Source of the DNA: Candidatus Aminicenantes bacterium
GTDB lineage: Bacteria; Acidobacteriota; Aminicenantia; Aminicenantales; Saccharicenantaceae
Direction of reading: 5' to 3'
NCBI GenBank assembly: GCA_963743205.1
Contig: CAVUOW010000010.1
Location: forward strand, 11,379-75,378
DNA length: 64,000 bases
Below, in pieces: positions 30,282-60,810 of the stretch; within the stretch, counting starts at the first letter, position 1; each line of letters opens with the position of its first letter. The notes under the pieces were generated by a model, which was not told where the DNA came from, ran no database searches, and was given only the letters and a program-made list of their open reading frames with translations. Position numbers and translations under genes: made by a program.

Positions 30282-30392
30282 GCTTGGCCTTGGATTCCAC
30301 GCCCGACCGGCGGGAAGCGGAGTCCCCGAAGCGACCATCAGAAGCGCGACGAAGCGGCTCGGAGGAGCGCTTCTGGGAAGATATCTTAGAAG
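30282..30392 (+). repeat. Structured intergenic repeat, copy A
   Basis: Shares ccggcgggaagcggaGTCnncgaagcgacc - hairpin - ggaaRatatct with copies at 51.6 kb and 60.6-60.8 kb. Hairpin is CAGAAGCGC (30339-30347) / GCGCTTCTG (30367-30375). Confidence 0.85.
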
Positions 30393-30405
30393 GGCCGTCG
30401 GCCCG

Positions 30406-30732
30406 TCAGATATATTTGCTGATCAGTTCGGTCAGTTTGGCCTTGGGCAGAACTCCAACGACTTTTTCTGCTAATTGGCCGCCCTTGAACAGGATCAGGG
30501 TCGGGATGGCCATGACCCCGTAGGTCTGGGAAGACTGGCCATTCTCGTCGACGTTCATCTTGACCACCTTGAGCTTGCCCTTGTGGGATTCGGCGATCTC
30601 GTCGACGACGGGTCCGATGATCCTGCAAGGACCGCACCAGGGGGCCCAAAAATCAACCAGGACGGGAAGGTCGGACTTGAGGACCTCGGCGTCGAAGGTG
30701 GCGTCAGTTCCGGTGATTATGGCGTCGGACAT
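30406..30732 (-). CDS. trxA: Thioredoxin
   Basis: 108-aa ORF with [10 protein letters not shown] active site. Confidence 0.97.
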
Positions 30733-30779
30733 AGGGTATCTCCAATCCTTAGTATTTCTGTAGTATATCGGAAGAACCC

Positions 30780-30808
30780 ATGATAGCGACGGGCCCGAAG
30801 GTTGTCAA
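30780..30808 (-). promoter_or_regulatory. Putative sigma70-type promoter of trxA
   Basis: Minus strand reads TTGACA-N17-TATCAT, followed about 40 nt later by SD GGAG and the trxA ATG. Confidence 0.5.
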
Positions 30809-30822
30809 ATCAAGGGGTTGGA

Positions 30823-31671
30823 CTATCCGGCCCAGCCCAATTTTTCCTTGACCAGGTCGTAATAAGAACGCTTGGGCGAGGTGATGAGCTGAAGCTCGAA
30901 CGGGGCCTTGCGGATCTCGACGACGTCGTTGCGGACCATGACGCCGCCGCGCTGGCCGTCGAAGGTCACATGGACCTCCTCCCCTCCCGTCAGCAGCCGG
31001 ACGCCGATCGTCGACGTCGCCGGAACGGCCATGGGCCGGAAGGACAGCGTGTGGGGGCAGATCGGCGTCAGGACGATGGCCGGGACTTGCGGGTGGAGGA
31101 TAGGGCCTCCAGCCGAGAGCGAATAGGCCGTCGAGCCCGTCGGCGTCGAGACGATGAGGCCGTCCGCCTTGAGCGTCGCCACGTCCCGGCCGTCGACAGA
31201 GATGGCCAGCTCGATCATCCGGGCCACGGCTCCCTTGGTGATGACCACGTCGTTCAGGCAGAACGACGTAGCGCCCTCCGTCCGGGCCTCGAGGAGTGCG
31301 CGGAAGTTGATGAGAGACGCATCGCCAGCCAGGAATCTGTCGAGGGTCTGGACGGCCTCGCTCACCGGGATCTCGGTCAGAAAGCCCAAGCGCCCGAGGT
31401 TGATGCCCATGACGGGAACCCCGGCTTGGGCCGCGTGATGCGCGACGCTGAGGAGCGTTCCGTCGCCGCCGAGCACGACGACAAGGTCCGAAGCGGCGGC
31501 GATCCCCGCCCGCTCCAGCCCGTCGGCACGGCCGAGCTTCCGCGCCGCGACGTCCTCGAGGACGCAGACGATGCCGCGGCCCTCGAAGTATTCGACCACG
31601 ATCTTGAGGATGCCCTCGACCGAGGGCGCGTGGGGCTTGATGACGATGCCGGCCTTGCGCACATTATTCAT
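30823..31671 (-). CDS. nadK: NAD kinase
   Basis: 282-aa ORF with the GGDGTLL motif and NLGRLGFLTE. Confidence 0.95.
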   Translation of the reverse strand: MNNVRKAGIVIKPHAPSVEGILKIVVEYFEGRGIVCVLEDVAARKLGRADGLERAGIAAASDLVVVLGGDGTLLSVAHHAAQAGVPVMGINLGRLGFLTEIPVSEAVQTLDRFLAGDASLINFRALLEARTEGATSFCLNDVVITKGAVARMIELAISVDGRDVATLKADGLIVSTPTGSTAYSLSAGGPILHPQVPAIVLTPICPHTLSFRPMAVPATSTIGVRLLTGGEEVHVTFDGQRGGVMVRNDVVEIRKAPFELQLITSPKRSYYDLVKEKLGWAG

Positions 31672-32455
31672 GGCTGACCGCCTCCTTGATCCAGGCTGGG
31701 ATGAGGTCCGCGTTTTGGTCCGGATCCCCCTTGACCCACCAGGCGAAGAATTCGACGTTTCCCTTCTGGCCGTGCGTCGAGCAGCGGATGAGGCCTTTGA
31801 GCCCGAAGCCGACGGTCCTGGCCCCGGCGACGACGCGGGCCAGGACCTCGGCGTGGACCGCCGGGTCGCGGACGACGCCCTTCTTGCCGACGTCTCTGGC
31901 CCCGGCCTCGAACTGCGGTTTGATGAGCGACACGAGGTTCCAGTCCCCGGGGATCGTTTTGAGCGCGGGCAGGATCTTGAGCACGGAGATGAACGAGACG
32001 TCCATGGTGATGATCCCCGGCGCTCCCGGGATGTCGGCCGGATCGAGCTCCCGGGCGTTCTTCTCGATGGTCACGACCCTCGGGTCCTTGGTCAGGTTCC
32101 AATCGAGCTGCTTCGTGTCCACATCGACGGCGTAAACTGTTGACGCGCCTCGTTTTAGCAGGCAGTCGACGAATCCCCCCGTCGACGCGCCGACGTCGAG
32201 CCCGATCAGGCCGCGGACGTCGATGCCGAAGCGGTCGAGGGCCTCTTCGAGCTTGAGCCCGCCGCGGCCGACGAAAGGAAGGGGTTTCTCGATCTCGATC
32301 GGCGCCTCCGCGTCGAGCAGGTCGCCCGGTTTGCGGACGGGACGGCCGGCGCTCGTCACCGACCCGGCCATGATCAGGGCTTGGGCCCGTTCGAGGCTCG
32401 GAGCGAGGCCCCGCCCGGTGAGGAGCTTATCCGCGCGTTCTTTCATCGGCGCCAC
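31664..32455 (-). CDS. tlyA: TlyA-family rRNA 2'-O-methyltransferase
   Basis: S4-like N-terminus (RADKLLTGRGLAPSLERAQALIMAGSV) plus FtsJ-type SAM fold (LDVGASTGGFVDCLL). Confidence 0.9.
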   Translation of the reverse strand: MAPMKERADKLLTGRGLAPSLERAQALIMAGSVTSAGRPVRKPGDLLDAEAPIEIEKPLPFVGRGGLKLEEALDRFGIDVRGLIGLDVGASTGGFVDCLLKRGASTVYAVDVDTKQLDWNLTKDPRVVTIEKNARELDPADIPGAPGIITMDVSFISVLKILPALKTIPGDWNLVSLIKPQFEAGARDVGKKGVVRDPAVHAEVLARVVAGARTVGFGLKGLIRCSTHGQKGNVEFFAWWVKGDPDQNADLIPAWIKEAVSHE

Positions 32456-34335
32456 AGCGGCAGGGGCATCTGATAAAAGTCCCGGATCTTCCGGACGATG
32501 CCCGGGACGTCGAGGCCGACCATGGCCCTGATCTCGTCCGACTTGCCGACCGGATAGGCGCCGATCGGCACGCCGATCGACAGGAACCGGATGTCGAACC
32601 GGCCTTCCCGGTCGAGGAACTCGCGCACGGCGCTGCCGGCGCCGCCTTCGACAATGCCCTCCTCGAGGGTGACGACCGTCCGGCCCGGCCCGGCGAAGCG
32701 GAGGATCAGGTCCCGGTCGAGCGGCTTGACGAAACGGGCGTTGACGACGGCGAGCGAAACGCCCGCCTTCTCGAGCTCACGGGCCGCCTCGAGGGCCGGC
32801 GCGACCATGTTGCCGACGGCGAAGAGGAGATCCTGCCCCTCCTTGACGATCTCGCTCCGTCCGAGCGGCAGGACCCTGAGGGTCTCGTCCATCGGGACCC
32901 CCAGGCCCTTGGCCTTGGGGAATCGCACCGAGCACGGGTGGCCGTAGGAGATGGCCGACCAGAGCATTTGCTGGAGCTCATTCTCGTCCTTGGGGGCCAT
33001 GACGATCATATTGGGCATATGCCGCATGTAGGCGATATCGTTGACGCCCTGGTGCGTGGGCCCGTCGTCGGGGACGATGCCGGCCCGGTCGAGGACGAAG
33101 AGGACGGGCAGGTCCATCAGGCAAACGTCGTGGTAGACCTGGTCGTAGGCCCGCTGGAGGAAGGTCGAGTAGATGGCCACGACGGGCTTGAAGCCCGCCA
33201 GGGCCAGGCCCGAGGCGAAGGTCACGGCATGCTGCTCGGCAATGCCGACGTCGAAAAAGCGGTCGGGGAGCTTCTCGGAGAATTCCTTGAGGCCGGTGCC
33301 CTCGCCCATGGCCGCGGTGATGGCCAGCACCTTCTCGTCCTTCTTGGCGATCTTGATCATCGAGTCGCCGAAGGCGCTCGAGAACGACGGGCCCCACTCG
33401 CGCTGCAGCGGCTCGCCGGTCGCGACCTTGAACGGCGCGGACCCGTGGAATTTCTCCGGGTGCAGCTTCGCCGGCTGGTAGCCTTTGCCTTTCTGGGTCA
33501 CGCACTGGATGAGGACGGGACCTTCATAGGTCTTGGCCGTTTCGAAGGCCTCGACGAGCGACTGGATGTTGTGCCCGTGGACCGGGCCGATGTAGCGGAT
33601 GCCGAGCTCCGTGAAAACCATTCCCGGGAAGAGAATCTTTTTGGCCAGCTCCTCGAGGGCATGGCCGGCCTTGATCACGGGGCGGCCGAGCTGGGGCACC
33701 TTCCTGAGGAGCGATTTGGCCTGGTCTTTGATGACGATATAGCGGTGCCCCGAAACGAGATAGGAGAAATACTTCGACCAGGCCCCGACGTTGATCGAGA
33801 TGGACATCTCGTTGAAGTTGAGGACGATGATCAGCCGCTCGCGGAGATGGCCGATCTGGTTCAGCGCCTCGAGGGCGACGCCGCCGGTCAGGCTGCCGTC
33901 CCCGACGACGGCGACGACGTGGTGATGCTGGCCGGCCTTGTCCCTGGCGACGGCCATGCCCAACGCGGTCGACAACGCGGTGGAGGCGTGGCCGGTGTTG
34001 GCGATGTCGTGCTCGCTCTCTTCCCGGCAGGGAAAACCGAGGATGCCGTCCTTGCGGCGCAGGCCGCCGAAGCGGTCCTTCCGGCCGGTCAGGAGCTTGT
34101 GGGTGTAGCACTGGTGGCCGACGTCCCAGACGATCTTGTCGCGGGGCGAGTCGAAGGCCAGGTGCAGGGCCAGCGTCAGCTCGACGGCCCCCAGGTTCGA
34201 GGCCAGGTGGCCGCCGTTCTTGGCGACCGTCTCGAGGATGCGGGTCCGGATCTCCATGGCCAGGGTCGAAAGCTCGTCCGGGGTGAGCTTGCGGATGTCC
34301 GCCGGCTCGTGAATGGCATCGAGGATCATGGCCAT
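32443..34335 (-). CDS. dxs: 1-deoxy-D-xylulose-5-phosphate synthase
   Basis: 630-aa ORF. GGHLASNLGAVELTLALH and VWDVGHQCYTHKLLTGR, TPP-binding GDGSLTGG. Confidence 0.97.
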   Translation of the reverse strand: MAMILDAIHEPADIRKLTPDELSTLAMEIRTRILETVAKNGGHLASNLGAVELTLALHLAFDSPRDKIVWDVGHQCYTHKLLTGRKDRFGGLRRKDGILGFPCREESEHDIANTGHASTALSTALGMAVARDKAGQHHHVVAVVGDGSLTGGVALEALNQIGHLRERLIIVLNFNEMSISINVGAWSKYFSYLVSGHRYIVIKDQAKSLLRKVPQLGRPVIKAGHALEELAKKILFPGMVFTELGIRYIGPVHGHNIQSLVEAFETAKTYEGPVLIQCVTQKGKGYQPAKLHPEKFHGSAPFKVATGEPLQREWGPSFSSAFGDSMIKIAKKDEKVLAITAAMGEGTGLKEFSEKLPDRFFDVGIAEQHAVTFASGLALAGFKPVVAIYSTFLQRAYDQVYHDVCLMDLPVLFVLDRAGIVPDDGPTHQGVNDIAYMRHMPNMIVMAPKDENELQQMLWSAISYGHPCSVRFPKAKGLGVPMDETLRVLPLGRSEIVKEGQDLLFAVGNMVAPALEAARELEKAGVSLAVVNARFVKPLDRDLILRFAGPGRTVVTLEEGIVEGGAGSAVREFLDREGRFDIRFLSIGVPIGAYPVGKSDEIRAMVGLDVPGIVRKIRDFYQMPLPLWRR

Positions 34336-34351
34336 GGTCTCTCCGGAAAAG

Positions 34352-34618
34352 TCAGGCTTTGCCGCCGTCCTCGCCCGTCTCCTCCCCGTCGTCCGTCTCG
34401 GTCTCGAAGTCCTCGGCCTTGAGCTTGCCCTTCTCGTCCTTGAGCAGGATCTCGACTTTGCGCTCGGCTTTATCGAGCTCGCCGCGGAGGAAGCGGGACA
34501 TCTTGACGCCTTTCTCGAAGAGCGCCAGCGATTCGTTGAGCGAGATGCCGCCCTTTTCGAGCTTGGCCACGATCTCTTCGAGGTCGGCCAGGGCCTTCTC
34601 GAACGTCAGGTTGGTCAT
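34352..34618 (-). CDS. xseB: Exodeoxyribonuclease VII small subunit
   Basis: Start set at MTNLTFEKALADLEEIVAKLEKGGISLNESLALFEKG (classic XseB). ATGA overlap with xseA. Confidence 0.92.
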   Translation of the reverse strand: MTNLTFEKALADLEEIVAKLEKGGISLNESLALFEKGVKMSRFLRGELDKAERKVEILLKDEKGKLKAEDFETETDDGEETGEDGGKA

Positions 34619-35955
34619 GACCCCTCCTTCAGGAACCGGGATTCCAGGAGCTTCTTGCGGTCGACGGATTCGACGCGGGCGCTGAACTCGCCTTTGAAGA
34701 ACGTCACCTCGACGGTCTCGCCGGGGACGACCTCCTCGATCCGGCGGGCCAGGCGCAGGCCGCCTTCCTTCCAAACGAGGGTGTAGCCCTTCTTGAGGAC
34801 GTCGAGAGGGCTGAGGGCATTGAGGGAGGCCGAAAGCCGCTCCCAGGTCCCCCGGTGGCCCCTCACCGTCCGGCGCAGGATGTTGGCCAGCCGTTCGGCC
34901 GCAAGAAGCGCCGCGCCTTTGTGCTCGGCGATGGCCTGCCGCTCGGCCCGGAGAACGTTCCGTCCCCGCGTCTCGAGGTCGTCCACCCGGCGGGCCAGGT
35001 TGGCCAGCCGGACCTCGAAATTCTGGAAGATGCGGTGGCGGGCGAGCTCGTCGACGTCCCCCCGCAGGTGCTGGATGCCGAAGCGGAGGGTCTCGCCGAG
35101 CCGGCGCGTCTGCGTTTCGATCCGCTCGGCGAAGGCCTCCTCCGTCGCGATGACCATCTCCGCGGCCGCCGAGGGCGTCGAGGCCCGGACGTCGGCGACG
35201 AAGTCGGCGATGGTAAAATCGACCTCATGGCCGACGGCCGAGATGACCGGGACGGGCGAGCGGGCGATGGCCCGGGCCACAGGCTCTTCGTTGAAGGCCC
35301 AGAGGTCCTCGATCGAGCCGCCGCCGCGGCCGACGATGAGAACGTCGATCCCCGGCCAGGCCCCGAGCACGTCGATGCCCTCGACGATCTCGGCCGCCGC
35401 GCCCTCGCCCTGGACCCGGGCGGGATAGATGACGACGTGGAGCTTGGCATAGCGGCGCTCGAGGACGCGGAGGACGTCGCGGATGGCCGCGCCGGTCGGC
35501 GAGGTGACGACGCCGATCGTCTTGGGCCGGAGCGGCAGCTTGCGCTTGCGCGCCTCGTCGAACAGGCCCTCGGCCTTGAGCTTGGCCTTGAGCTGCTCGA
35601 AGGCCAGCTGCAGGGCGCCCTTGCCCTTGGGCTCGACGAGGTCGACGTAGAGCTGGTAATCGCCGCGAGGCTCGTAGACGCTGATCTTGCCCCGGCAGAC
35701 GACCTTGAGCCCGTCCTTGAGTTCGAAGAGGATCTTGCGGGCCGTCGATTGCCACATGACGGCCTTGATGACGCTCTTGTCGTCCTTGAGGTTGAAGAAG
35801 ACGTGGCCGGAGGCGGCTTTCTTGTAGCCCGAGACCTCGCCCTCGACCCAGACCTGGGGGAAGGCGACCTCGAGGGCGGTCTTGACGATCTCCGTGACCT
35901 GCGAGACCGTGTAGATCTGGTCCTTGATCACCAGGCCGTCAATCTTCGTGGCCAT
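34615..35955 (-). CDS. xseA: Exodeoxyribonuclease VII large subunit
   Basis: 446-aa ORF. OB-fold N-terminus (VWVEGEVSGYKKAASGHVFFNLKD) and catalytic core (GRGGGSIEDLWAFNEE). Confidence 0.95.
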   Translation of the reverse strand: MATKIDGLVIKDQIYTVSQVTEIVKTALEVAFPQVWVEGEVSGYKKAASGHVFFNLKDDKSVIKAVMWQSTARKILFELKDGLKVVCRGKISVYEPRGDYQLYVDLVEPKGKGALQLAFEQLKAKLKAEGLFDEARKRKLPLRPKTIGVVTSPTGAAIRDVLRVLERRYAKLHVVIYPARVQGEGAAAEIVEGIDVLGAWPGIDVLIVGRGGGSIEDLWAFNEEPVARAIARSPVPVISAVGHEVDFTIADFVADVRASTPSAAAEMVIATEEAFAERIETQTRRLGETLRFGIQHLRGDVDELARHRIFQNFEVRLANLARRVDDLETRGRNVLRAERQAIAEHKGAALLAAERLANILRRTVRGHRGTWERLSASLNALSPLDVLKKGYTLVWKEGGLRLARRIEEVVPGETVEVTFFKGEFSARVESVDRKKLLESRFLKEGS

Positions 35956-38292: not shown

Positions 38293-38301
38293 TGGGATAA
38301 C

Positions 38302-38325
38302 CTCCTCATCTATTCAAATGAGGAG
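38302..38325 (-). promoter_or_regulatory. SD-sequestering hairpin in the rny leader
   Basis: mRNA sense: CUCCUCAU-UUGAAUAG-AUGAGGAG. This is an 8-bp stem whose 3' arm contains the SD GAGGAGG, 9 nt before the rny AUG at 38292. Confidence 0.45.
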
Positions 38326-38406
38326 ACGCGAGAGAAAGAGCGGAGGCGTCAGATGCCCGCGCCGGGACCGGCCCGGCCGTCGAGCCGGCCGCGCGGAACG
38401 TGCCGG

Positions 38407-38736: not shown

Positions 38737-38976
38737 AACCCGAGTTTGTCGATCTCGCCGATGATGGCTTCGATCTTCCCCTTCAGGAGCTCCCGCTCGC
38801 CGTCGTACTTCTTCATCTCCTCGTCCATGCGGGCGATCTTGCGGGTGCTTTCCTCGAAGTCCTTCTTTTCCGTCCGGAACTCCTTGATCTGCTGGCGGAG
38901 CTTCTCATTCTCGGTCGTCAGCTTGTGGATGTGATCGACGACCTGTCCGATCTTGCCTTCGAGTATTTTAATTCGC

Positions 38977-38993: not shown

Positions 38994-42487
<3,494 letters not shown>

Positions 42488-49378: not shown

Positions 49379-51514
49379 ATGAACGCCGAACCGACCAATC
49401 TGACCACGGTGTCCGACGCGGACCTCACCCTGGTCGAGCGCGAGCTCGAGCGGACGCCCCAGCCCCGATCGACGCACGACCTCACCGGCAAGCTGGCCTT
49501 CGAGAAGACGGCCACCGAACGGACCCAGGACGTCAAGAAATACGACTCCTACGCCCGCTATGACGTGGGCGACCTCATCGAGAAGGAATACAGCGAGCCC
49601 CTGACCGTCGGCAGCAAGTCGGTCGAGCACTTCGAGGGCCGGGTCATCCTCAAGGTCGTCGCCAAGACCTTCTCGCCGCATTTTCATTGCGACATGCTCG
49701 AGGTCGACTACCCCGGAGGCGGCGTCTTCCGGAAATATATCGATTACATGAAGAAGACGCGGACCCAGGTCCTCCTGCCCGCGAACTGCGACGGCCGCGA
49801 TTCGACCACCGTGATCATGGCCAAGGGCGACGATCCCCGGCTGACCGATCTGCCCATGACCGAGCGCGATCTCCGGACGCTCGAAAAGAACCTGCGCCTC
49901 CGGCTGGCCAAGGACACGAAAGTCTTCAGCTGGAACGATTTCTGGCAGCTCGCCGCGAAGCGCGTCGACATCCCGGCGGAAAAGGTCCAGGAGATCGAGG
50001 CCGATTTCGCCGCCACCCGCCATTCGGCCACGACCGAGGACCTGGTCCGGAAGTTCTTCGGCCTCGAGGCCTCGAACGACCTCTTCGACCTGACCTGCCT
50101 GAGCCTGAGCGCCCTGCTCGAGAAGAAGCACAAGAAGGACTTCATCCTCTTGGCCGATAGCGGCTGGGGCAAGTGGCATCTCAAATCGATCCTCAACGCC
50201 CTGCCCGAGGGCCTGGCCCTGTCCGCCCCGATGTCCGACGTGCCCGAGCTCGACGAGCTCGAGAAGCCGGAGATGAGCATCGTCCAGGACTTCCCGATCA
50301 AGATCTACCTGACCTGGCGCGAGATCGTGTCGGGCGGGATCAAGATCCCGCGCAGCCTGGGCAAAGAGCTCTCGCATGCCCGCGAGTACACGTTCACGGA
50401 TTCCGAGGCGGGCCAGCCGTACACCCTCTACTACTATCCGGTCCAGAACTTCTTTCTGGGCCTCCAGGATTTTTACACCCAGTACAACATCCCCCAGGGC
50501 GCCAGCCTGACCCTCGAGAGGACCGGCCCCACGGCCTTCAAGTTCTGGTTCAAGAAATCGAAGAAAAAGATGTCCGTCATCCGCCTCGGCTACGACGCCG
50601 AACGGGACGAGTTCACGGACAACGGCGAGGAGGCCTACACCTTCTCCGAGCCGAACAAGATCATCTACATCGAGCGCGAGACGCTCGGCCATCTCCTGCC
50701 TCTCACGGCGACGCGGGAGGGTTTCGATCTCCGGGACTTCGTCGTCACCATTTTCCGCGACCCCGTCCTGTCCACCTCGGCCCACTCCCTGCACTTCCTG
50801 CGGGCCTATCATCTCATCGACCTCGTCCGCCAGACGACCCAGGAGGACGTCGAGTACGTCCTGCTGAACTCGCCGGAATTCACCAAATCCGACAAGAAAA
50901 AAGGCGTCTTCACCTACCGCGAACCGTTCGTCGAGGAGGAGGAGACCGGCGAGGCTGTCTACCCCGAGGGCTACGAGGAGCCCGGGGCGGAGGCGTTCAC
51001 CCCCGAAGAGGCGGCCCTCGAAGCCGTGGCCGACGAGCTCCGGGGCGTCGGGCCCGGGGCCGGCTTCGAAGAGACCGAAGAAATGCCGATCGCTCCCCCG
51101 ACTCCCCCGGAGCCCGAAGCCGCGAAAAAGGTCAAGGAATTCAACAAGAAGAGGAAGCCCAAGACCGAGGGCGACAAGGGACCGCGCCCGAAGAAGAGCG
51201 AACGCCGGGTCATCGAGGAGAAGCTCGTCGAGGAAGAGTCGGTCCAGGAAGCCCTGGCCGCCGTCAAGGAAAAGCAGGACGAAGGCCTCGAACAGCGGGC
51301 CCGGGAGAAGAAGGAAGAATTCAAGCCGGCGCCGAAGAAGGAAGCGAAGAAAGAAGAGCCCAAGTTCGGCATCTTCGCCGACCTGCTCAAGTCGGCCCTG
51401 AAGAAGAAGCCCGAGGACGAGAAGGCCGGCGAGGCTCCTGAAGAAGCGACGCCCGAAGAACAGGCCGAAGAGAAGCCGTCGGAAGAGAAGCCCGAGGGCG
51501 AGGAATCCAAGTAG
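49379..51514 (+). CDS. Uncharacterized 711-aa protein with Lys/Glu/Pro-rich low-complexity tail
   Basis: The ATG lies 1 nt after the argF stop (tgatATG). The first roughly 520 aa have globular-looking composition with no motif I recognise. The last roughly 190 aa are E/K/P/A-rich (..KKRKPKTEGDKGPRPKKSERR..EEKPSEEKPEGEESK). Confidence 0.6.
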   Translation: MNAEPTNLTTVSDADLTLVERELERTPQPRSTHDLTGKLAFEKTATERTQDVKKYDSYARYDVGDLIEKEYSEPLTVGSKSVEHFEGRVILKVVAKTFSPHFHCDMLEVDYPGGGVFRKYIDYMKKTRTQVLLPANCDGRDSTTVIMAKGDDPRLTDLPMTERDLRTLEKNLRLRLAKDTKVFSWNDFWQLAAKRVDIPAEKVQEIEADFAATRHSATTEDLVRKFFGLEASNDLFDLTCLSLSALLEKKHKKDFILLADSGWGKWHLKSILNALPEGLALSAPMSDVPELDELEKPEMSIVQDFPIKIYLTWREIVSGGIKIPRSLGKELSHAREYTFTDSEAGQPYTLYYYPVQNFFLGLQDFYTQYNIPQGASLTLERTGPTAFKFWFKKSKKKMSVIRLGYDAERDEFTDNGEEAYTFSEPNKIIYIERETLGHLLPLTATREGFDLRDFVVTIFRDPVLSTSAHSLHFLRAYHLIDLVRQTTQEDVEYVLLNSPEFTKSDKKKGVFTYREPFVEEEETGEAVYPEGYEEPGAEAFTPEEAALEAVADELRGVGPGAGFEETEEMPIAPPTPPEPEAAKKVKEFNKKRKPKTEGDKGPRPKKSERRVIEEKLVEEESVQEALAAVKEKQDEGLEQRAREKKEEFKPAPKKEAKKEEPKFGIFADLLKSALKKKPEDEKAGEAPEEATPEEQAEEKPSEEKPEGEESK

Positions 51515-51528
51515 TTAGTTTCCTGCAG

Positions 51529-51729
51529 GTGAAGCCCTTCTGTCGGCTTTGCTCGGGTGTCGCCCCTCGCTTCCCCGCACCCCCGGCGGCGGGTAGCGGA
51601 CTCTGGGAAGCGACCCGGCAGAAGTGCGGCGGAGCGACTCGGAGCCGGACTTTGCGAAATATCTGGAGCGAATCTTGGGGTACGGGGACTTCGGGGCGAC
51701 AACCCTCGCCGCCTCCCGAAGGGCTTCAC
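51529..51729 (+). repeat. Structured intergenic repeat, copy B (201-nt imperfect palindrome)
   Basis: Perfect 12-bp termini GTGAAGCCCTTC (51529-51540) / GAAGGGCTTCAC (51718-51729). Inner arms GGTGTCGCCCC.. / ..GGGGCGACAAC. Core hairpin CAGAAGTGCGG-cggagcgactcggag-CCGGACTTTGC (51619-51655). Confidence 0.85.
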
Positions 51730-51746: not shown

Positions 51747-52823
51747 TTAGAGGATATCTCGGACAGATCCCTTCCGCTTCGTTATCCCCATGCTGTCCAG
51801 CAGCTCGAGCAGGGGGATGCTGTACTTGCGGGATAATCCCGTCATCACCTTGAAGTCGGCGACCGTCAGCTCCCGTTTTCCCGAGCCGCGGACCTTAGCG
51901 ATGATCTCGTCGAGCCAACGCGAGTGGAGGATGAACCCGTCGATCCCCTCGACGATCTTTTTGCGCTCGGCCAGGACGGCGAGCAGGGTCTGAAGCTTCA
52001 ACGGCGTGAGCTTGAGCTTCTCCCGGATGTCGTCCAGGGTGACGCTGCCGAGCTCGCCGCTGAGCACCATGGCTTCGAGCGCGGCCAGCGTCCCTTCGTC
52101 GGCGGTGGACAGCGGAATGCGGAAGTCCGGCAGCCGGACGATGCCCGACTCTTCGACGACCCGGCCTTCCTTGGCCAGGAGGCGGAGGGCCAGGACGAGG
52201 ACCGTGCGCGGCGCCTCGAACCGGGTCTCGAGGTTCTCGAGAGGCGCGCCTCTCTGGGCCGGATGTTTTTTGTGATATTGGACGAGAAAGGAGACGATCC
52301 GGCCGCGGAGAAGATCGAGGCTGGCCTGGGAGATGAGCCGGACGGGTGAGAAGCCGAGGATGCGGACCTTGCCTTCCTCCTCGAGGGCCCGGGCCAGGGT
52401 CTCGACCCGGGAGCGGGACAGCCGGCAGAAGTCGTCCAGGCTCTCGCCCTGCAGGCCCTTGAGCCCGCCGAACTCCGCCAGGGCCAGGATCATGTCTTTT
52501 TCCCCGACGTCGAGCCGGGCCAGGAGGGCCTTGCGCCGCGCGAGCCTGAGCTCCTGCGAGGACGGCGCGCCGGGGAAGAGGCACTTGCCGCGGCCGAGGA
52601 CGTCGCCCCGGACCGTGCGGACCTCGAAGGGATCGGCCCATTTGACGTCCACCGGGCGGTCCGTGAGGACACGGACGAACGGGGCCCTTTTCCGCCCCGG
52701 GGCCGCGTAATCCAGGAACCGGGCTGAGACGCCGCCGCCGAGGAACACGGCCTCGGCCCGGAGCTCGACGCCGGCGGCTCCCAACGGGAAATCGAGGACG
52801 GCGTCGAACATGGGCGCTTTCAT
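51747..52823 (-). CDS. SelB C-terminal-domain protein (domain III plus winged helices), no GTPase domain
   Basis: 358-aa ORF. The C-terminus ELTVADFKVMTGLSRKYSIPLLELLDSMGITKRKGSVRDIL matches the SelB WH4 SECIS-binding module. The N-terminus (..ADPFEVRTVRGDVLGRGKCLFPG) resembles EF-Tu-like domain III. No G1-G4 motifs. ATGA overlap with the rnr stop. Confidence 0.8.
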   Translation of the reverse strand: MKAPMFDAVLDFPLGAAGVELRAEAVFLGGGVSARFLDYAAPGRKRAPFVRVLTDRPVDVKWADPFEVRTVRGDVLGRGKCLFPGAPSSQELRLARRKALLARLDVGEKDMILALAEFGGLKGLQGESLDDFCRLSRSRVETLARALEEEGKVRILGFSPVRLISQASLDLLRGRIVSFLVQYHKKHPAQRGAPLENLETRFEAPRTVLVLALRLLAKEGRVVEESGIVRLPDFRIPLSTADEGTLAALEAMVLSGELGSVTLDDIREKLKLTPLKLQTLLAVLAERKKIVEGIDGFILHSRWLDEIIAKVRGSGKRELTVADFKVMTGLSRKYSIPLLELLDSMGITKRKGSVRDIL

Positions 52824-54905
52824 GGCCGGCGCTCTTCCGGGTCCGCCGCCGGAACGAAGCTCATGCGGCGCAGGGCCAGGTCACAGGACACCAGGACGAC
52901 CCGGACGGAGTCCCCCAGCTCGAACGTCCTCCGGCGCCGTTTGGGCCGGAGCCGCCGGCCCGCGGGCCTGGGCTCATAGTCGCCGCCGAGCGAGGAGAAC
53001 GGCAGGAGGCCGGCCACGAAATAGTCGTCGAGCTCGACCAGGAGCCCGGCCTTAACGATGTCGACGACGATGCCGCCGAACTCGTCGCCGAGGCGGTTTT
53101 TGAGGAAGCGCAGGATGCGCCATTCGACGAGGGACTGTTCCGCGTCGGCGGCGTTGCGCTCCCGCCCGGAGGCCGCGACCGCGGTCGGCTCGAGATCGAC
53201 TCCGTCCGGGGCGGCGCGCCGCAAGAACGCCTTGAGCAGCCGGTGGACCACGAGGTCGGGATAGCGGCGGATGGGCGAAGTGAAGTGGGTGTAGTCGGTC
53301 TTGGCCAGTCCGTAGTGGCCGACGTTCTTGGTCGAGTACACGGCCAGCTTCATCGCCCGCAAGACCTGGCGGCCGATGAACTTCTCCCCGGGAAGCCCCT
53401 TCGCCCGTTCGAGGACGCGCTGGAGGTCCTTGGACCGGACCTTGGCCGGGTCCGGCAGGGTCAGGCCGAAATTGACCAGGATATCGCGCAGCTTCCCGAG
53501 ATCCCCGACGTCGGGGGCGGGATGGACGCGGTAGATCGCCGGGATCTTCTTCGCCGTGAAGGCCGAGGCCACGGCGACGTTGGCGGCGACCATGAATTCC
53601 TCGATGAGACGGTGGGCCTCGTTCCTCTCGGCGGCGGCGACGGCCAGGAGCTTGCCGTTCTCGGAGATGAGCTCGGGCTCGACGAGATCGAAGTCGAGGC
53701 TCCCCTCGGCCAAGCGGCGGGCCCGCAGGACCGCGGCCAGCTCCCGCATGACGAGAAGGCCGGGGACGACGTCGGCATGCCGGGTTCTCTCTTCGGCGTC
53801 CCCTTCGAAGATCCTGAAGACCGAGGTGTAGGTCATGCGATGGGCCGTGCGGATGATCGAGGGCGTGAATTCCGACTTGCGGACGCGGCCCTCCTTGTCG
53901 ATATCGAGGATCGCGGAGACCGTCAGCCGGGGCTCGCGGGGGCGCAGGCTGCAGAGCCCGTTCGAGAGTCGCTCGGGAAGCATCGGCAGGGTCAAGTCGG
54001 GAAAATAGACGCTCGTCCCCCGCTCGAAGGCTTCGCGGTCGAGGGGGCTCCCGGGCTTGACGTAGTGGGAGACATCGGCGATGTGGACGCCGAGAAGCCA
54101 GCCGCCGTCGTCAAGCTGCCGGATGCTCACGGCGTCGTCGAAAGTCCTGGGCCTTTTCCCCGTCGATCGTCACCGTCGGCCAGCCGCGGAAATCGCGCCG
54201 GCCTTCGAGGACCGCGGCGGCATCGAGGTCGGGGATCTCCTCGGCTTCGCGGCGGACGTCCTCGGGGAACTCGGACCTGAGGCCATAGCGCTGGATGACG
54301 ACCCGGGCATCGACCCCGGGATCGTCGGGCCGCCCGAAGACGCGGGTCAGGGCGAGCGTCGCCCGGTCGGCTTCGACGATCATGCCCGGCTCGGGCTTGA
54401 GCTTGGAGCGCGACTTCAGGGGGATGTCGTCCACGGAGGGCGAGTCGAAGGGTTGGAGATAGGGCGCGCCGCCCCGTTCGATATAGACGCCGAGGAGCCC
54501 CTGCCGCTGCTTCTTGAGGATGCGCTCGATGCGTCCCTCGGGCTTGCCGAACTTGCCTTCCTCGCGGACGACGACCATCACCTCGTCTCCCGGCAGGGCG
54601 CCGCGGGTGTCCCGGGCCGGAACGAAGATGTCTCCTCCCCCGCCTTCGGGAGTGACGAAGCCGAATCCGGGACGGGCCGTGACGAACCGCCCCCGGACGA
54701 GGCCGGTCTTTTCGGCCAGCCGGAAGCGGCCGCGAAGCGAACGGACCTCGCCCCGGGCCACGAGCCGGCGCATCTCCTCCTGGAGCTTGGCCCTGTCGCG
54801 GCGTTTGAGGCCGAGCTCGGACAGGATCTTCTCCAGGTCGAGACCTTCCTTGTGTTTTTTGAGGAGGGCGAGCACTCGGAAAGCGGGCATGATGTTGTCT
54901 TTCAA
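52820..54905 (-). pseudogene. rnr: Ribonuclease R, one frame disruption (probable assembly indel)
   Basis: The N-terminal ORF 54111..54905 (HTH/cold-shock-like) ends ..TIDGEKAQDF, then shifts. ORF 52820..54130 continues with ..IRQLDDGGWLLGVHIADVSHYV (RNB) through the S1 domain. Removing one T from the TTT (plus-strand AAA 54141-54143) restores DFDDAVSIRQL. Length is 3n+1. Confidence 0.9.
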
Positions 54906-55540: not shown

Positions 55541-55561
55541 GGTGGTGCCCGGCGCCCCCGG

Positions 55562-56338
55562 TCAATCCCGGTCGTCGCGGTTCCTGTCGTGGATGATCCT
55601 CAGGCCTTCGAGGACGAGATCGGGCTCGTAGGCGTCGATCTCGGCAAGCTCCGAAGTGATCTGACCGCCGTAGCCGCCCGTGGCGACGACCCGGGCCTTC
55701 GGGCCGAGCTCTTTGCGGATCTCCTCGATCGTCTTCGTGACCAGGCCGATGTAGCCGAAATAGAGCCCGGATTGCATGCTGGACACGGTCGTTCGGCCGA
55801 TGGCCCGCTTGGGCTTGCGGATCTCGATGCGCGGCAGCTTGGCCGTCTTGAGATAGAGGGCCTCGGCCGAGATCTGGATGCCCGGGGCGATGGCCCCGCC
55901 CAGGTACTCGCCCTTGGCCGAAACGGCGTCGAACGTCGTCGCCGTGCCGAAATCGAGGATGATGACGGGTCCGCCATACTTCTCGAAGGCGGCGACCGCG
56001 GCGGTGATGCGGTCGGCCCCGACCTCGAGCGGGGTCTCGTAAAGGATGGGCATGCCCGTCTTGAGGCCAGGGCCGACGACGCTGGCCGTCGTCGTGAAAT
56101 AGGTCCGGCAGACCTCTTCGATGACAGGTGTCAGAGGAGGGACGACGCTCGAGATGATGGCCGCCGTGATCTTGCTGGCGGCGAGGCCGGAGACTTGCAT
56201 CAGGTTGAGGAAGGTGACGCCGTATTCGTCGCTCGTCTTGCCGCTGTCGGTCTTGATCTTCCAGCTTTTGACGAGCTTGCGGCCGCGGAACAGACCGATG
56301 GCGATCGTCGTGTTCCCGATATCGAATGCCAAGAGCAT
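55562..56338 (-). CDS. coaX: Type III pantothenate kinase
   Basis: 258-aa ORF. MLLAFDIGNTTIAIGLF, ILDFGTATTFD, ATGGYG. Confidence 0.93.
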   Translation of the reverse strand: MLLAFDIGNTTIAIGLFRGRKLVKSWKIKTDSGKTSDEYGVTFLNLMQVSGLAASKITAAIISSVVPPLTPVIEEVCRTYFTTTASVVGPGLKTGMPILYETPLEVGADRITAAVAAFEKYGGPVIILDFGTATTFDAVSAKGEYLGGAIAPGIQISAEALYLKTAKLPRIEIRKPKRAIGRTTVSSMQSGLYFGYIGLVTKTIEEIRKELGPKARVVATGGYGGQITSELAEIDAYEPDLVLEGLRIIHDRNRDDRD

Positions 56339-56349
56339 CTCGCGCCTCC

Positions 56350-57108
56350 TCAGGAGATCCGTTCGAGCTTCAGGACGGCATCAAGGGCAACTGTCCCGGC
56401 CCCGGCCCGCGCGACGACGAGACGGCCTTCCGCGTCGAGCCCGAGGTATTCCGCGTCAAAGGCTCCCTCGGCCGTCTCGACCCTCACGGCCGAGCCCCGG
56501 GGAAACGCCGGCCTCGATTCGAACGTCCTGATGACCTTCTCCTTGTCTCCCCGGGTAAGGACATTATACCAGCGGTCGAGGGCCCCGCAAAGGGCGGACG
56601 AGAGGGCGTCGACCGTCACGGCGCGCCCGCCGGCGATCCGGATGGACGTCGAGGCCGCGCGGATCGCTTCGGGGAAATCGTCCGGCTCGTGGCCGACGTT
56701 GAGGCCGATGCCAACGACGGCGAAGTCTCCGCCGGCTCCCCCGCTGACCCCTTCGGACAGGATGCCGCCGAGCTTCTTCCCGCCGTGGACGATGTCGTTC
56801 GGCCACTTGAGCCCGCACTCGACCCCGCTCGTTTCGAGGACCGCGTCCGAGGCGGCCAGCCCGGCGGCGAGAGGAATGAGATGCGGAGACGGCAGGGCCC
56901 CGCCGCCCGGGCCGCGGAGGATGAACGAGGCATAAAGCCCCAGGCCTGCGGGCGAATGCCAGGCGCGCCCTTTCGTGCCGCGTCCACGGGTTTGTTCTTT
57001 GGCCAGGACCGCCGTCCCGTGGGCCGCCCCCTGAAGGGCGAGTGCGCGGGCGGAGTCGTTCGTCGAGGGAACCGTCTCGAACCGATGGACGATGGCGCCG
57101 ACGGGCAT
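56350..57108 (-). CDS. birA: Biotin--[acetyl-CoA-carboxylase] ligase
   Basis: This is the last 252 codons of ORF 56350..59703, from the ATG at 57108. Motifs TVPSTNDSA, EQTRGRGTKGRAWHSP, GLKWPNDI. No N-terminal HTH, so a group I ligase. Confidence 0.9.
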   Translation of the reverse strand: MPVGAIVHRFETVPSTNDSARALALQGAAHGTAVLAKEQTRGRGTKGRAWHSPAGLGLYASFILRGPGGGALPSPHLIPLAAGLAASDAVLETSGVECGLKWPNDIVHGGKKLGGILSEGVSGGAGGDFAVVGIGLNVGHEPDDFPEAIRAASTSIRIAGGRAVTVDALSSALCGALDRWYNVLTRGDKEKVIRTFESRPAFPRGSAVRVETAEGAFDAEYLGLDAEGRLVVARAGAGTVALDAVLKLERIS

Positions 57109-57125
57109 GGCTTCGGCTTCGGGGC

Positions 57126-59759
57126 TCAAGCCCCGGCCAGCCCGGCCAGGTTCTGGCCGAGCTTGTCCCGGCGGGCCTGCAGCTCGTCGAGCCGGGCCCG
57201 CGTCTCGGCCACGACGGCGGCCGGCGCCTTGGCGACGAAGTCGGCGTTCGCGAGCTTGCGCTCGATCTTCTCGGCTTCCGCCGCGATCTTGGCCAGCTCC
57301 CGTTGGAGCCGGTCCCGTTCCTGGCCGATGTCCGCCGGCTTTCCCGGAACGAGGCCGATCTCGAAGGGGCCGGCGACGCCCTTGAGCAGCCCCTCGCCTT
57401 CCGGGAGCCCAGTCGCGAATTCGAGGCTGGCCAGACCCGCCAGCGTGCTCACGGACGCGGCCTGGGCCTCGAGGGCGGCCGTCTCTTCGGCGCCGGCGGA
57501 CTTGACGATGAGCCGGAGCTTGTCCTTGGGCGCGATCTTGTTCCCGGCCCGGATCGTCCGGGTCTCGACGATGACCGCCTGGACGAGGGCCATGGCCTTC
57601 TCGGCGGCCTCGTCCTTCCAGCCCTGTTCGGGAACGGGGAAGGCCGCGACGGCGATCGACTTCCCGGCGCCCGGAAGATGCTGCCAGATCTCCTCGGTGA
57701 TGAAGGGCATGAAGGGGTGGAGGAGCTTCAGGATGCGGTCGAGGGCGTCGGCCAGGACGGCCTCGGTCGTCGCCCGGCCCTCGCGCAGGCCGACCTTGGC
57801 GAACTCGATGTACCAGTCGCAGAACTCGTGCCAGACGAAATGATAGATGAGGTCGGCCGCCTCGTAGAACTTGTATTCGCCGAGGCTCGCGTCGAGCGCG
57901 GCTGTGATCGCGCTCAGCCGGCTGCGGATCCAGCGGTCGGCGAGAGTCAGCTCCGATTCCCGGACCTCGGGCCGTTCGGTCTTGAGGTTCATGAGGACGA
58001 AGCGCGAGGCGTTCCAGATCTTGTTGGCGAAGGCTTGGTAGCCGGCCATGCGCTCCTCGGACAAGGCCAGGTCCATGCCCGGCACGGCCAAGGCCGCCAG
58101 GGTGAAGCGCAGCGCGTCCGTGCCGTACTTGTCGATCATCTCCAGGGGGTCGATGATATTGCCTTCCGACTTGCTCATCTTGCGCCTGTTGAGGTCGCGG
58201 ACGAGGCCGTTGATGAAAACCTGGCGGAAGGGGATCTGTCCCCGGAACTTGAGGCCCATCATGATCATACGGGCGACCCAGAAAAAGATGATATCGAACC
58301 CGGTCGACATCAGGTCGGTCGGATAAAAGGCCCGCAGGTCCTCCGTATCGTCGGGCCAGCCGAGCGTCCCGAACGGCCACAGGGCCGAGGAGAACCACGT
58401 ATCGAGAACGTCCTCGTCCTGGTCGACCGGCCCGCCGCACTTGTCGCACTTCTCGGGAGGCTCCATGGCCACGATAATCCGGCCGCAATCGCGGCAGTAC
58501 CAGGCCGGGATGCGGTGGCCCCACCAGAGCTGGCGCGATATGCACCAGTCGTGGATGTTGTACATCCATTCGAAATAGGTCTTGGCCCAGTTCCCCGGGA
58601 TGAATTCGATCGAGCCGTCCTCGACGACGCGGATGGCCTCGTCGGCGAGCGGCTTGATGCGGACGAACCACTGCCACGACAGGTGGGGCTCGATGATGTT
58701 CTGACAGCGGTAGCAGTGGCCGACGGCATGGTCGTGGTCCTCGATCTTGACGAGGAGCCCCAGCTCCTTGAGCTTTTCGACGACCTTGGCCCGGGCGGCG
58801 AAGCGATCGAGGCCGGCGAAGTCCGGACCGGCCTCTTCGGTCATTTTGCCCGAACCGTCGATGACGATGATCTGCGCCAGGCCGTGCTTCTTGCCGAGCT
58901 CGAAGTCGACCGGGTCGTGGGCCGGAGTGACCTTGACCGCCCCGGTGCCGAAATCGCGCTCGACCCGCTCGTCGGTGATGACCGGGATGGACCGGTTCTG
59001 GATAGGCAGGATGATCCGCTTGCCGTGAAGGTGCCGGTAGCGCTCGTCGTCCGGGTGGACGGCGACGGCGGTGTCGCCGAGCATCGTCTCGGGCCGCGTC
59101 GTGGCCACGGTGACGGACTCGTCCGATCCTTCGACGGTATAGCGGACGTACCAGAGCTTGCCGCGCACGTCCTTGTGCTCGATCTCGATGTCCGAGAGCA
59201 CCGTCCGGCAGTGCGGGCAGCGGTTGACGAGGAAGTAATCGCGGTAGATCAGCCCCTCGTTGTAGAGCGAGACGAAGACCTGGATGACGGCCCGGCTGAA
59301 GCCCTCGTCCATGGTGAAGCGCTCGCGCGACCAGTCGAGCGAGGCGCCGAGCTTCTTGAGCTGTCCGGTGATCACGCCGGCATACTTGTCTTTCCAGTCC
59401 CAGGCGATGCGGAGGAATTCCTCGCGGCCGATCTTCTCCCGGGTCAGGCCCTTTTCGGCCAGCCGCTTCTCGATGACGTTGTGGACGGCGATCGAGGCGT
59501 GGTCGGTCCCGGGCAGCCACATGCAGTTGTAGCCCTGCATCCGCTTCCAACGGGTGATGATGTCCGGCAGGGTGAAGCACAGGGCGTGGCCCATATGGAG
59601 GATGCCGGTGACGTTCGCCGGCGGCAGGACCATCGAGAACTTGGGCTTCGAGGACTTGGGGTCGCCGACGAAGAGTCCCTCGTCGAGCCAGAATTGCCCC
59701 CATTTATCTTCGACCGGCTTGGGGTCGTAGGCTTTGGCCAGTTCGTCTTTCGTGTTCAT
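57126..59759 (-). CDS. valS: Valine--tRNA ligase
   Basis: Start at MNTKDELAKAYDPKPVEDKW (ATG 59759; an alternative ATG is at 59774). HMGHAL (HIGH) and KMSKS motifs, C-terminal coiled coil. Confidence 0.96.
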   Translation of the reverse strand: MNTKDELAKAYDPKPVEDKWGQFWLDEGLFVGDPKSSKPKFSMVLPPANVTGILHMGHALCFTLPDIITRWKRMQGYNCMWLPGTDHASIAVHNVIEKRLAEKGLTREKIGREEFLRIAWDWKDKYAGVITGQLKKLGASLDWSRERFTMDEGFSRAVIQVFVSLYNEGLIYRDYFLVNRCPHCRTVLSDIEIEHKDVRGKLWYVRYTVEGSDESVTVATTRPETMLGDTAVAVHPDDERYRHLHGKRIILPIQNRSIPVITDERVERDFGTGAVKVTPAHDPVDFELGKKHGLAQIIVIDGSGKMTEEAGPDFAGLDRFAARAKVVEKLKELGLLVKIEDHDHAVGHCYRCQNIIEPHLSWQWFVRIKPLADEAIRVVEDGSIEFIPGNWAKTYFEWMYNIHDWCISRQLWWGHRIPAWYCRDCGRIIVAMEPPEKCDKCGGPVDQDEDVLDTWFSSALWPFGTLGWPDDTEDLRAFYPTDLMSTGFDIIFFWVARMIMMGLKFRGQIPFRQVFINGLVRDLNRRKMSKSEGNIIDPLEMIDKYGTDALRFTLAALAVPGMDLALSEERMAGYQAFANKIWNASRFVLMNLKTERPEVRESELTLADRWIRSRLSAITAALDASLGEYKFYEAADLIYHFVWHEFCDWYIEFAKVGLREGRATTEAVLADALDRILKLLHPFMPFITEEIWQHLPGAGKSIAVAAFPVPEQGWKDEAAEKAMALVQAVIVETRTIRAGNKIAPKDKLRLIVKSAGAEETAALEAQAASVSTLAGLASLEFATGLPEGEGLLKGVAGPFEIGLVPGKPADIGQERDRLQRELAKIAAEAEKIERKLANADFVAKAPAAVVAETRARLDELQARRDKLGQNLAGLAGA

Positions 59760-60347
59760 GATTTCGACATCCATTCCTTGAGGTCGGCCAGGACGCGGGC
59801 CCGGACGCGCTTCTCGATCTCCCGCTCCATGTCGACGATCTCCTCGCGGACGATCTCCCGGACGCGTGGCCCCTCGCCGGCCTGTGAGGACGGGGCTGAC
59901 GCCCCATGCGGGGCTGCTCCGGGACCGCGGGATTCGCCGGACCAGACGGGCTCCTCGGGCAGGGACGACGGTCCCGGTCTTGCGGGCGATGAGCTCGCGG
60001 ACGACGGCCGTCAGGCGCTCCGAATCGAACGGCTTGGCCACGACGTCGTCGTAATCCGGGGGAACGGTCCTGTCGCCGTCGATGCACTCGAAGGCGCCGC
60101 GCAGGCCGATGAGCGGCACCGCCGCCAGATCCTTGCGGCTCCTCAGGGTGTGCGCGACCTCGTAGCCGTCCCGGCCCGGGAGCGTCAGGCTGACGAGGAG
60201 CGCATCCGGACCGACGCCGGCCACGGATTCGAGGAGCGAGGCCCCGTCGTCGAAGACGAAGACCCGGAATTCAGGCTCCGCGAAGGCCAGCTGGGCCGCC
60301 TTCTGGACCGAAGGGCTGGGGTCGGCCACGATGATCTTGTAAGGCAC
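59756..60347 (-). pseudogene. Stand-alone receiver-domain protein with helical tail; one frame disruption; atypical acceptor site
   Basis: GTG start with SD GAGGA. The receiver fold (KIIVADPSPS.., DALLVSLTLPGRDGYEV, VVAKPF) is in the frame that runs on into valS. The sensible C-terminus (..PRVREIVREEIVDMEREIEKRVRARVLADLKEWMSKS) is in another frame and stops in an ATGA overlap with the valS ATG. The shift lies somewhere in 59880-59985. Length is 3n+1. Confidence 0.7.
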
Positions 60348-60382
60348 GGTAATCCTCAGAAAAGCAAGAAAATAGTCAGTTT

Positions 60383-60411
60383 ACTGTACCCGTTTTGAGC
60401 AGGGGTGTCAA
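60383..60411 (-). promoter_or_regulatory. Putative sigma70-type promoter for the receiver-valS transcription unit
   Basis: Minus strand reads TTGACA-N17-TACAGT, about 30 nt upstream of SD GAGGA and the GTG at 60347. Confidence 0.45.
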
Positions 60412-60509
60412 TCTGAAGGAAACCGGACGACCACGGTTCCCGGGCTGCCGTGCCCTCTTCCCTCTCCGGAGCTGTCAGTTGACATCCCTTTTTTGGTTCT
60501 TCTCCCGAT

Positions 60510-60655
60510 TCCGGGAGGTCCCTCTCTCCGGCTTGGCTCAGGGTATCGCCTCTACCCCCCCGGCCCCCCGGCGGCGGGAAGCGGACTCTTGGGAGCGACC
60601 CGGCAGAATCGGGGCTGAGCACTCGAAGCCGCGATTCTGCGAAATATCCTAGAAG
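60510..60655 (+). repeat. Structured intergenic repeat, copy C1
   Basis: tccgggaggtccctctc..gggtatcgcc..ccggcggcgggaagcggactcttgggagcgaccc, then hairpin CAGAATCG(G)GG-ctgagcactcgaag-CC(G)CGATTCTG (60604-60639), then cgaaatatcctagaag. Confidence 0.85.
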
Positions 60656-60664
60656 AGCATTTCA

Positions 60665-60810
60665 CGAAGATATTTCCCAGAAGTATGGCTCCGAGTCGCT
60701 CCGCCATACTTCTGATGGTCGCTTCGACGACTCCGCTCCCTGCCGGTCCCCCCTCCACCACGGGGATCTGCGAGGCGACACCCATCGCCGCCGCGAGAGG
60801 GAAACCCGGA
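60665..60810 (-). repeat. Structured intergenic repeat, copy C2 (inverted, tail-to-tail with C1)
   Basis: The reverse complement aligns with copy A and copy B: ..gggtgtcgcc..ccggcagggagcggagtcgtcgaagcgaccat. Hairpin is CAGAAGTATGG-cggagcgactcggag-CCATACTTCTG (60678-60714), followed by ggaaatatcttcg. Confidence 0.85.

Follow-up and report, generated by a model that had tools for sequence, protein, structure and literature searches.

A two-hairpin structured module in probable ISL3-type miniature elements of Candidatus Aminicenantes

A 64-kb stretch (64,000 nucleotides) of contig CAVUOW010000010.1 from Candidatus Aminicenantes bacterium (assembly GCA_963743205.1), referred to here as the window, contains intergenic repeats that are probably small non-autonomous transposons (miniature inverted-repeat elements, or MITEs), mobilised by an ISL3-family transposase and bearing a structured module of two hairpins. 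This module, the core, is ~85–90 nt long (the ~90-nt unit below), its hairpins are maintained by compensatory substitutions, and a role at the level of RNA or of single-stranded hairpins is the most likely reason for its preservation. The elements make up an undescribed family within the familiar class of MITE-, REP- (repetitive extragenic palindromic) or BOX-like repeats, with hairpins that are unusually well preserved.

The window holds four core copies (A, B, C1 and C2) and no more. An nhmmer profile built from them returns them with E-values of 1e-23 to 1e-25 (next-best match E=0.06), and a covariance model (CM) run with its filters off finds the same four at 80–103 bits, the rest of the window scoring 16 bits or less. 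A preliminary description, made by a model from the sequence alone, had listed the four at these places, and both searches show them to be real; a possible fragment that it added at 60438–60478 is detected neither by hidden Markov models (HMMs) of the core and of its flanks nor by the covariance model. The preliminary description was also right about the blocks that the copies share (CGGCnGGnAGCGGAnTC...GnAGCGACC, CAGAA...TTCTG and GAAATATC), about the loop that B and C2 have in common, about the replacement of a G-C by a T-A pair in C1, and about the gene contexts, A and B lying between convergent genes and C between divergent genes. The three gaps concerned had been taken for the largest non-coding gaps present; by rough gene calls that of C (~530–590 nt) is indeed the largest, but those of B (232 nt) and A (155 nt) do not rank above several others. 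The repeats form a genuine family, as proposed, although its copies are not separate units but an internal module of a MITE. On whether the family is an already described REP or MITE the outcome is divided, as it is MITE-borne, though we found no description of it in Rfam or the searchable literature.

Element C and its ISL3 partner

The clearest limits are those of element C. Window positions 60495–60826 share 87–92% identity with elements in other genomes, and the similarity stops sharply at both ends, so that C1 and C2, both of them real cores but first described as two copies, are the arms of one element. This is a 332-bp MITE with ISL3-type inverted ends (GGTTCTTCTCCC.../...GGGAAGAAGAGCC), at an AT-rich site upstream of valS. 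The left terminal inverted repeat (TIR; 60495–60518, GGTTCTTCTCCCGATTCCGGGAGG) and left flank span 60495–60563 on the plus strand (flank HMM E=7e-16) and are followed by core C1 (60564–60653, plus strand; CM 87.6 bits), whose minimum-free-energy fold gives both hairpins, P1 and P2. A central spacer (60654–60663), across which the ATATC ends of the two cores face each other as in convergent pairs at related loci, leads to core C2 (60664–60753, minus strand; CM 102.9 bits) and then to the right flank and TIR (60754–60826, minus strand; flank HMM E=3e-13), ending ...GGGAAGAAGAGCC at 60826. The arms of the full element are ~165 nt long and ~70% similar, and each holds one core.

Both ends are present in 19 collected elements (GGYTCTTCTCCC.../...GGGAGAAGARCC), window positions 60495 and 60826 included. 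These two-ended elements are 187–341 bp in size, non-coding and multi-copy, with no conserved frame, and their terminal inverted repeats are of the ISL3 type (GGCTCTTC...). Elements of the family make 8-bp target duplications, which are perfect in loci L027 (TTACTTAA) and L066 (TATTATAA) and agree at seven of eight positions in six more; the 17 elements used for this comparison match on average at 5.88 of 8 positions, whereas random re-pairing of left with right flanks gives 3.96 ± 0.32 and reaches the observed value in none of 20,000 permutations. The flanks are 87% A+T. The window's own element C has putative duplications (CCTTTTTT at 60487–60494 and, from comparison of the flanks, TTTTTATT at 60827–60834) that match at only six of eight positions, allowing a shift of at most one base, and that lie in T-runs. 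Published ISL3 insertion sequences (ISs) have ends that start GGCTCTTCG, make 8-bp repeats and have given rise to MITEs (PMC6305408, PMC11448079). Identical elements occur in unrelated flanks, which argues for movement; at an ffh-linked site, set aside in the rate comparisons because its element is inverted in one genome, the elements lie in opposite orientations in different genomes, and L072 has a core pair where the window, at ~4556, has none, the downstream synteny differing as well.

A scan of metagenome sequences with the end sequence added 120 loci and 75 further cores, the elements clustering at about 190, 270 and 330 bp; members of a 270-bp subfamily in one genome are 87–93% identical to each other. 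Metagenome contig L223 (OGCK01001362.1) carries at 3614–4955 a complete ISL3-family IS of 1,342 bp, whose 424-aa open reading frame (ORF) matches DDE_Tnp_ISL3 (E=9.5e-64), HTH_Tnp_ISL3 and Zn_ribbon_ISL3. The transposase ORF has its stop codon within the left inverted repeat, and the flanks of the IS are A-rich (AAAAAAAT / AAAGAAAA). Its ends are those of the MITEs over ~24 nt, and the first ~24 nt of element C match them, after which divergence is complete; the same contig also bears a 190-bp MITE of the family. With an autonomous IS sharing the terminal ~24 nt, mobilisation in trans by an ISL3 DDE transposase offers a natural mechanism, and that the MITEs would be moved in this way is well supported by the matching ends. 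As the shared sequence is confined to these ~24 nt, the cores are not remnants of the IS interior. No transposase or REP-associated tyrosine transposase (RAYT) is found among ~55 window ORFs scanned against Pfam, in agreement with the preliminary description, and the sole recombinase-type match in the window is XerC-like (198–1082), beside topA and dprA. Among other candidates for the autonomous element, L022 2007–3438 was a false lead, its ORF looking by eye like a sulfatase in translation, and nine more ORFs beside TIR-like matches comprised an OEP protein, an ATP-grasp ligase, an epimerase, a metallo-beta-lactamase, a weakly ceramidase-like protein and four without a Pfam match.

The family thus resembles ISL3 ISs and their MITE derivatives (ISArsp7, PMC6305408; a MITE of Microcystis aeruginosa whose ends are GGCTCTTCG and whose direct repeats are 8 nt long, PMC11448079) in its GG(C/T)TCTTC ends and 8-bp duplication, and in being small, ORF-less, multi-copy and matched by an autonomous DDE_Tnp_ISL3/HTH/zinc-ribbon IS with the same ends. 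It departs from them in that its interior is not a deletion remnant of the IS, in its long arms with two-hairpin cores, and in the presence of the core outside the family as well.

Within the family, alignment places the MITEs with one core or none as internally deleted versions of the two-core form. Those that lack a core but have the same ends and duplications are common, so that the core is dispensable for transposition; these 'empty' MITEs keep the first ~16 nt of a core. Element B, first taken for a single copy at 51529–51729, has a real core, but as an element it is a flank-core-flank derivative: it is an older MITE copy with decayed ends that has lost its second core, expected between 51668 and 51673, by deletion. 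Its left arm (51529–51578, plus strand), a decayed MITE flank that pairs with the right arm, gives a weak flank-HMM match (51534–51578, E=5.4) and aligns with other MITE flanks and with the left flank of an orthologous full element in L096. Core B itself lies at 51579–51668 on the plus strand (CM 79.6 bits; nhmmer E=2e-23), and the right arm, also a MITE flank, at 51673–51729 on the minus strand (flank-HMM match 51722–51682, minus strand, E=0.012). The orthologous site in L096, from a genome of 88% identity, has an element (7482–7662) that retains both cores.

Structure and preservation of the core

The structure of the core was derived from an alignment of 150 copies, which begin CCGGC... and end ...ATATCT. 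Hairpin P1 has the form GC-[GGA]-N / N'-[GRA]-GC and closes a TCNN loop, while P2, with a 12-bp stem (CAGAAGnnnGGC/GCCnnnCTTCTG), carries the same GGA/GGA purine internal loop at its top, so that one internal loop, 5'-CGGAN/N'GRAG, is found in both hairpins. The inner half of P2 varies freely yet remains paired. Under this structure standard pairs fill 95.3% of the pair cells, compared with 84.1% in shuffled alignments and 31–39% in slid registers, and changes are seen on both sides in 14 of the 18 pairs. For example, the strongly covarying pair 23–28 in P1 is GC in 69 copies, CG in 40 and UA in 28; pair 47–73 is GC in 76 and UA in 60; and pair 48–72 is CG in 60, UA in 54 and AU in 14. Pair 54–66 alternates between G.A, U-A and C-G, pair 41–80 switches between U.G and G.U, and pair 52–68 at site B is G-C in the window and A-T in L096. 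RNAalifold independently yields the same helices, and the pairs of highest mutual information are helix pairs; a mutual-information search for long-range or pseudoknot pairing between the 5' CCGGC and the 3' GGGAAATATC gave nothing beyond a possible 41–80 wobble pair. The two arms of a single element differ in the variable part of P2, so that only pairing within the core accounts for it. The claim that the hairpin is kept by compensatory substitutions, made at first from four copies, therefore holds over 150, and selection on secondary structure is supported to that extent; that it acts at the level of RNA we infer.

While the stems covary, the loops, internal loops and junctions (AGCGGA, GAGCGACC, GGAGCGACTCGGAG and GAAATATC) hardly vary. 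One-base insertions or deletions separate copies at alignment columns 34, 40, 59 and 84, which bears out the earlier view that structure rather than a peptide is kept. The idea that the repeats encode a short conserved peptide could draw on long minus-strand ORFs that overlap B (50971–51729) and C (60552–60878), but these have no Pfam match, the substitutions are paired across the stem and not concentrated at third codon positions, and the one-base changes at four columns break any frame, so that a peptide is excluded. GANTC and CsrA-like GGA motifs also occur within the core, probably by coincidence.

There is a modest hint that the G-rich strand would be the one that folds. In all four window cores the forward strand folds 1–8 kcal/mol better than the reverse, and a tally from the pair tables gives ~40 G-U pairs in the stems against ~17 A-C mismatches. 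Single-sequence fold z-scores are modest (−0.4 to −2.9); the whole element folds as a long foldback (−188 kcal/mol, z=−11.7).

Preservation of the core is also seen at orthologous sites. Core A (30300–30390, plus strand; CM 84.6 bits, nhmmer E=4e-24) is a solo two-hairpin core without recognisable MITE ends, between the stop of a BrkB-like gene at 30250 and the stop of thioredoxin at 30406, and it is retained at the same site in related species, with 96% identity in L033 and 91.4% in L048. In the latter comparison 74 of 81 core positions agree, against 74.6% of the third codon positions of the flanking genes. The core is also better conserved than the MITE flanks. The similarity at orthologous sites points to constraint in place or to gene conversion. 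We note separately that 30253–30296, just upstream of core A, is a decayed direct duplicate of the thioredoxin 3' end (30406–30449), with ~70% identity across 41 nt as judged by eye; its minus strand reads ...AKLLERIAKHI*, resembling the true C-terminus in L048 (...AKLTEAIAKHI*), and these direct repeats of ~45 nt bracket core A both in the window and in L033, an arrangement that L048 lacks.

As to function, we propose tentatively, by analogy, that the core may have a role at the RNA level. Selection would act on a folded single strand, most likely the G-rich 'forward' strand in read-through transcripts, and the role might be like that of REP, BOX or Correia hairpins, namely an RNA-stability or RNA-processing signal or a protein-binding hairpin; alternatively, the hairpins may simply help the element persist. 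Pneumococcal BOX, Neisseria Correia, enterobacterial ERIC/IRU and Bacillus cereus bcr1 elements are, like those described here, modular intergenic elements of 100–350 bp with predicted stable RNA hairpins, some with compensatory changes, and their effects, where known, are on mRNA stability, processing or transcription. Compared from general knowledge, they have no sequence relationship to the present family, and their ends and duplications differ (TA for Correia and TTTAT for bcr1); the invariant purine-rich internal loops, and a module common to two TIR families, distinguish the elements described here.

Several observations weigh against a MITE-borne core kept for a role of this kind. The autonomous IS was found on an unbinned metagenome contig and not in the window's own genome. 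Many solo cores, A included, lack recognisable ISL3-type ends, and these, together with a second TIR family that also carries the core (see below), mean that carriage by a single MITE family does not fully account for its spread. Single cores favour neither orientation with respect to the genes beside them (11 same, 17 opposite), and scans inside elements A, B and C gave neither promoter-like nor terminator-like sites, which fits a selfish element better than a cis-acting RNA signal; the only promoter match nearby, at 60411–60383 on the minus strand, is likely that of valS. The copies are related by descent, so the pair counts overstate how many compensatory events were independent. Some copies decay, so that constraint does not extend to all of them: P1 of the first core is broken in L096, and the window's B has lost a whole core. 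Finally, high similarity at orthologous sites could stem from gene conversion instead of purifying selection.

Distribution of the core and competing explanations

An exact-pattern scan of one genome per species found at least 114 loci from at least 31 genome assemblies, and these stretches, which add up to at least 867 kb, contain at least 163 core matches; the family is genuine and widespread. Among the matches listed, almost all assemblies carrying the core are labelled Candidatus Aminicenantes, the Chersky.35_14 bin resembles the window most closely (95% identity along 3.7 kb), and the cores form 39 convergent pairs with their ATATC ends facing and one divergent pair, 75 being single; the gaps within the 39 convergent pairs run from −4 to 22 nt, almost all 0–22. 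The core pattern has no match in viral contigs. At the Rfam gathering score only tRNAs pass in the window and ten related loci, and relaxed searches of B and C give chance-level microRNA and long non-coding RNA matches only, so the motif stands outside known RNA families, as was first thought. The elements are somewhat enriched in gaps between convergent genes (32 of 98 classified clusters, against 20% of all gaps), and among 744 proteins predicted around the elements the only recurrent neighbours are ECF sigma factors and ABC ATPases.

The second TIR family (GGGGTCAAACC...), which houses the core at its symmetry centre, has the ends (AAGAn)GGGGTCAAACCTA...TAGGTTTGACCCC(nTCTT) and variable interiors of 10–100 nt that usually have other contents. 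Members with a core are at L015 1376–1504, L046 5570–5698, L088 2485–2609 and L112 2505–2627, with the core joined directly after GGGGTCAAACCTAC; further members, for which no core was named, are at L001 3111–3151, L044 4649–4689, L052 3792–3832, L105 324–407 and L112 5429–5522. Many solo cores adjoin yet other small palindromes, such as GGGGACACGTACC-nnnn-GGTACATGTCCCC and GAGGGACTGTCCC-nnnn-GGGACTGTCCCTC, for example in L063 (~5420–5450), L014, L035 (~3640–3670), L049, L025, L055 and L070, among others, and several families of hairpin repeats seem to form a mosaic in the intergenic DNA of these genomes. A conserved sequence of ~90 nt (...GTGATTTAGCCGG..GGAG.CGGA.GAGGG.AGTTTCCCTGGAAACCGCCAA.AACGTGTTTGAGCGAGG...), with no Rfam family at the gathering score, lies upstream of the core at four loci in three assemblies (L059 ~6640–6730, L042 ~2725–2815, L055 and L070), and L059 and L070 each have a tRNA gene no more than ~300 nt from the core.

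The strongest competitor to an ISL3-mobilised MITE with a structured module takes the core to be a functional structured RNA in its own right, a protein-binding small RNA module or an undiscovered ribozyme, under selection at the level of the host or the element, with the MITE as its vehicle. Nearly invariant loops and junctions on covarying stems are the usual signature of a functional RNA, and the purine loop common to both hairpins, the switching of pairs 54–66 and 41–80, the excess of G-U over A-C on the forward strand, the conservation of the core above MITE flanks and above synonymous sites at an orthologous locus, and its presence in two unrelated TIR families and alone all agree with this. 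We nevertheless consider it unlikely, as the core has no Rfam match, no orientation bias and neither promoter nor terminator, copies at orthologous sites are found decayed or deleted, single-sequence folds are modest, and hundreds of copies per genome would be atypical of a trans-acting RNA gene. Equally doubtful is the bolder proposal that the core is a new class of functional structured RNA or single-strand element, with GGA/GRA loops that might bind protein or be catalytic, taken up and multiplied by two or more unrelated MITE families and kept by selection in place, not by recent copying.

Less likely still is that the hairpins work as DNA, in single-stranded or cruciform form, where host factors would recognise them, or else a second mobilising enzyme that would insert the core into palindromic sites. 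Such insertion would account for cores that lie nested in the middle of other inverted-repeat elements, and the position of the core at the symmetry centre of two TIR families, the preference for convergent over divergent pairs among the matches listed and the foldback of the whole element are in its favour; tandem G.A mismatches, moreover, are stable in DNA too. Against it, no HUH/Y1 transposase or RAYT occurs in the window or recurs among the 744 neighbour proteins, the 'empty' MITEs look like internal deletions and not like unoccupied insertion sites, and solo cores have no defined target duplication or fixed junction.

REP or REPIN elements mobilised by a RAYT (an IS200/IS605-like tyrosine transposase) are a very improbable identification. 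The family shares with them its abundant extragenic hairpins, compensatory stems, persistence at orthologous sites, and a mixture of singlets with common inverted doublets, the latter as in REPINs (PMC3116915). However, the ~90-nt unit is three to four times longer than the 20–40 nt of a REP, neither core end has a GTAG or CGTC tag, the 8-bp target duplications and DDE-type inverted ends contradict such an origin, and no RAYT is found among the window ORFs or neighbouring proteins, the ISL3 partner being found instead.

As a MITE family tied by sequence to its ISL3 partner, the elements give Aminicenantes (candidate division OP8), a lineage that is widespread, uncultivated and known from metagenome bins alone, an annotatable repeat family. 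They break assemblies, several contigs ending inside them, and they fill intergenic DNA that could otherwise be mistaken for regulatory RNA. They also illustrate cleanly how a structured module can be conserved better than the ends of the transposon that carries it; should the core have an RNA or protein-binding function of its own, mobile elements would be distributing a functional structured module genome-wide.

Neighbouring genes in the window

The window is 65% G+C and carries housekeeping genes. Those of replication and recombination are the xerC-like recombinase, topA, dprA, xseA and a dnaE fragment; those of metabolism include carAB, atpBE, thioredoxin, dxs, argB/F and coaX; and those of RNA and translation are rny, pheST, thrS, infC, rplT, an RNase R-like gene and valS.

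Some of these genes have unusual features. The valyl-tRNA synthetase ORF (57126–60347, minus strand, 1,073 aa) has an N-terminal response-regulator receiver domain (residues 5–116, E=3e-11), the synthetase core starting at about residue 216, and would be an unusual fusion of receiver and synthetase if the upstream start codon is real. The RNase R/II-like gene appears to be split, within 51747–54905 on the minus strand, into overlapping ORFs at 54111–54905 (OB and cold-shock domains) and 52820–54130 (RNB and S1), and next comes a 358-aa ORF, overlapping by 4 nt, whose only domains are the winged-helix ones of SelB, the GTPase part being absent. A TonB-dependent receptor also appears split (19839–22002, plus strand), with the Plug domain at 19839–20993 and the beta-barrel at 20953–22002, overlapping, which could reflect a frameshift or a sequencing error. 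Just before element B ends a 711-aa ORF (49379–51514, plus strand) that has a strong coding signal (GC3 0.89), no Pfam match and a C-terminus rich in E, K and P.

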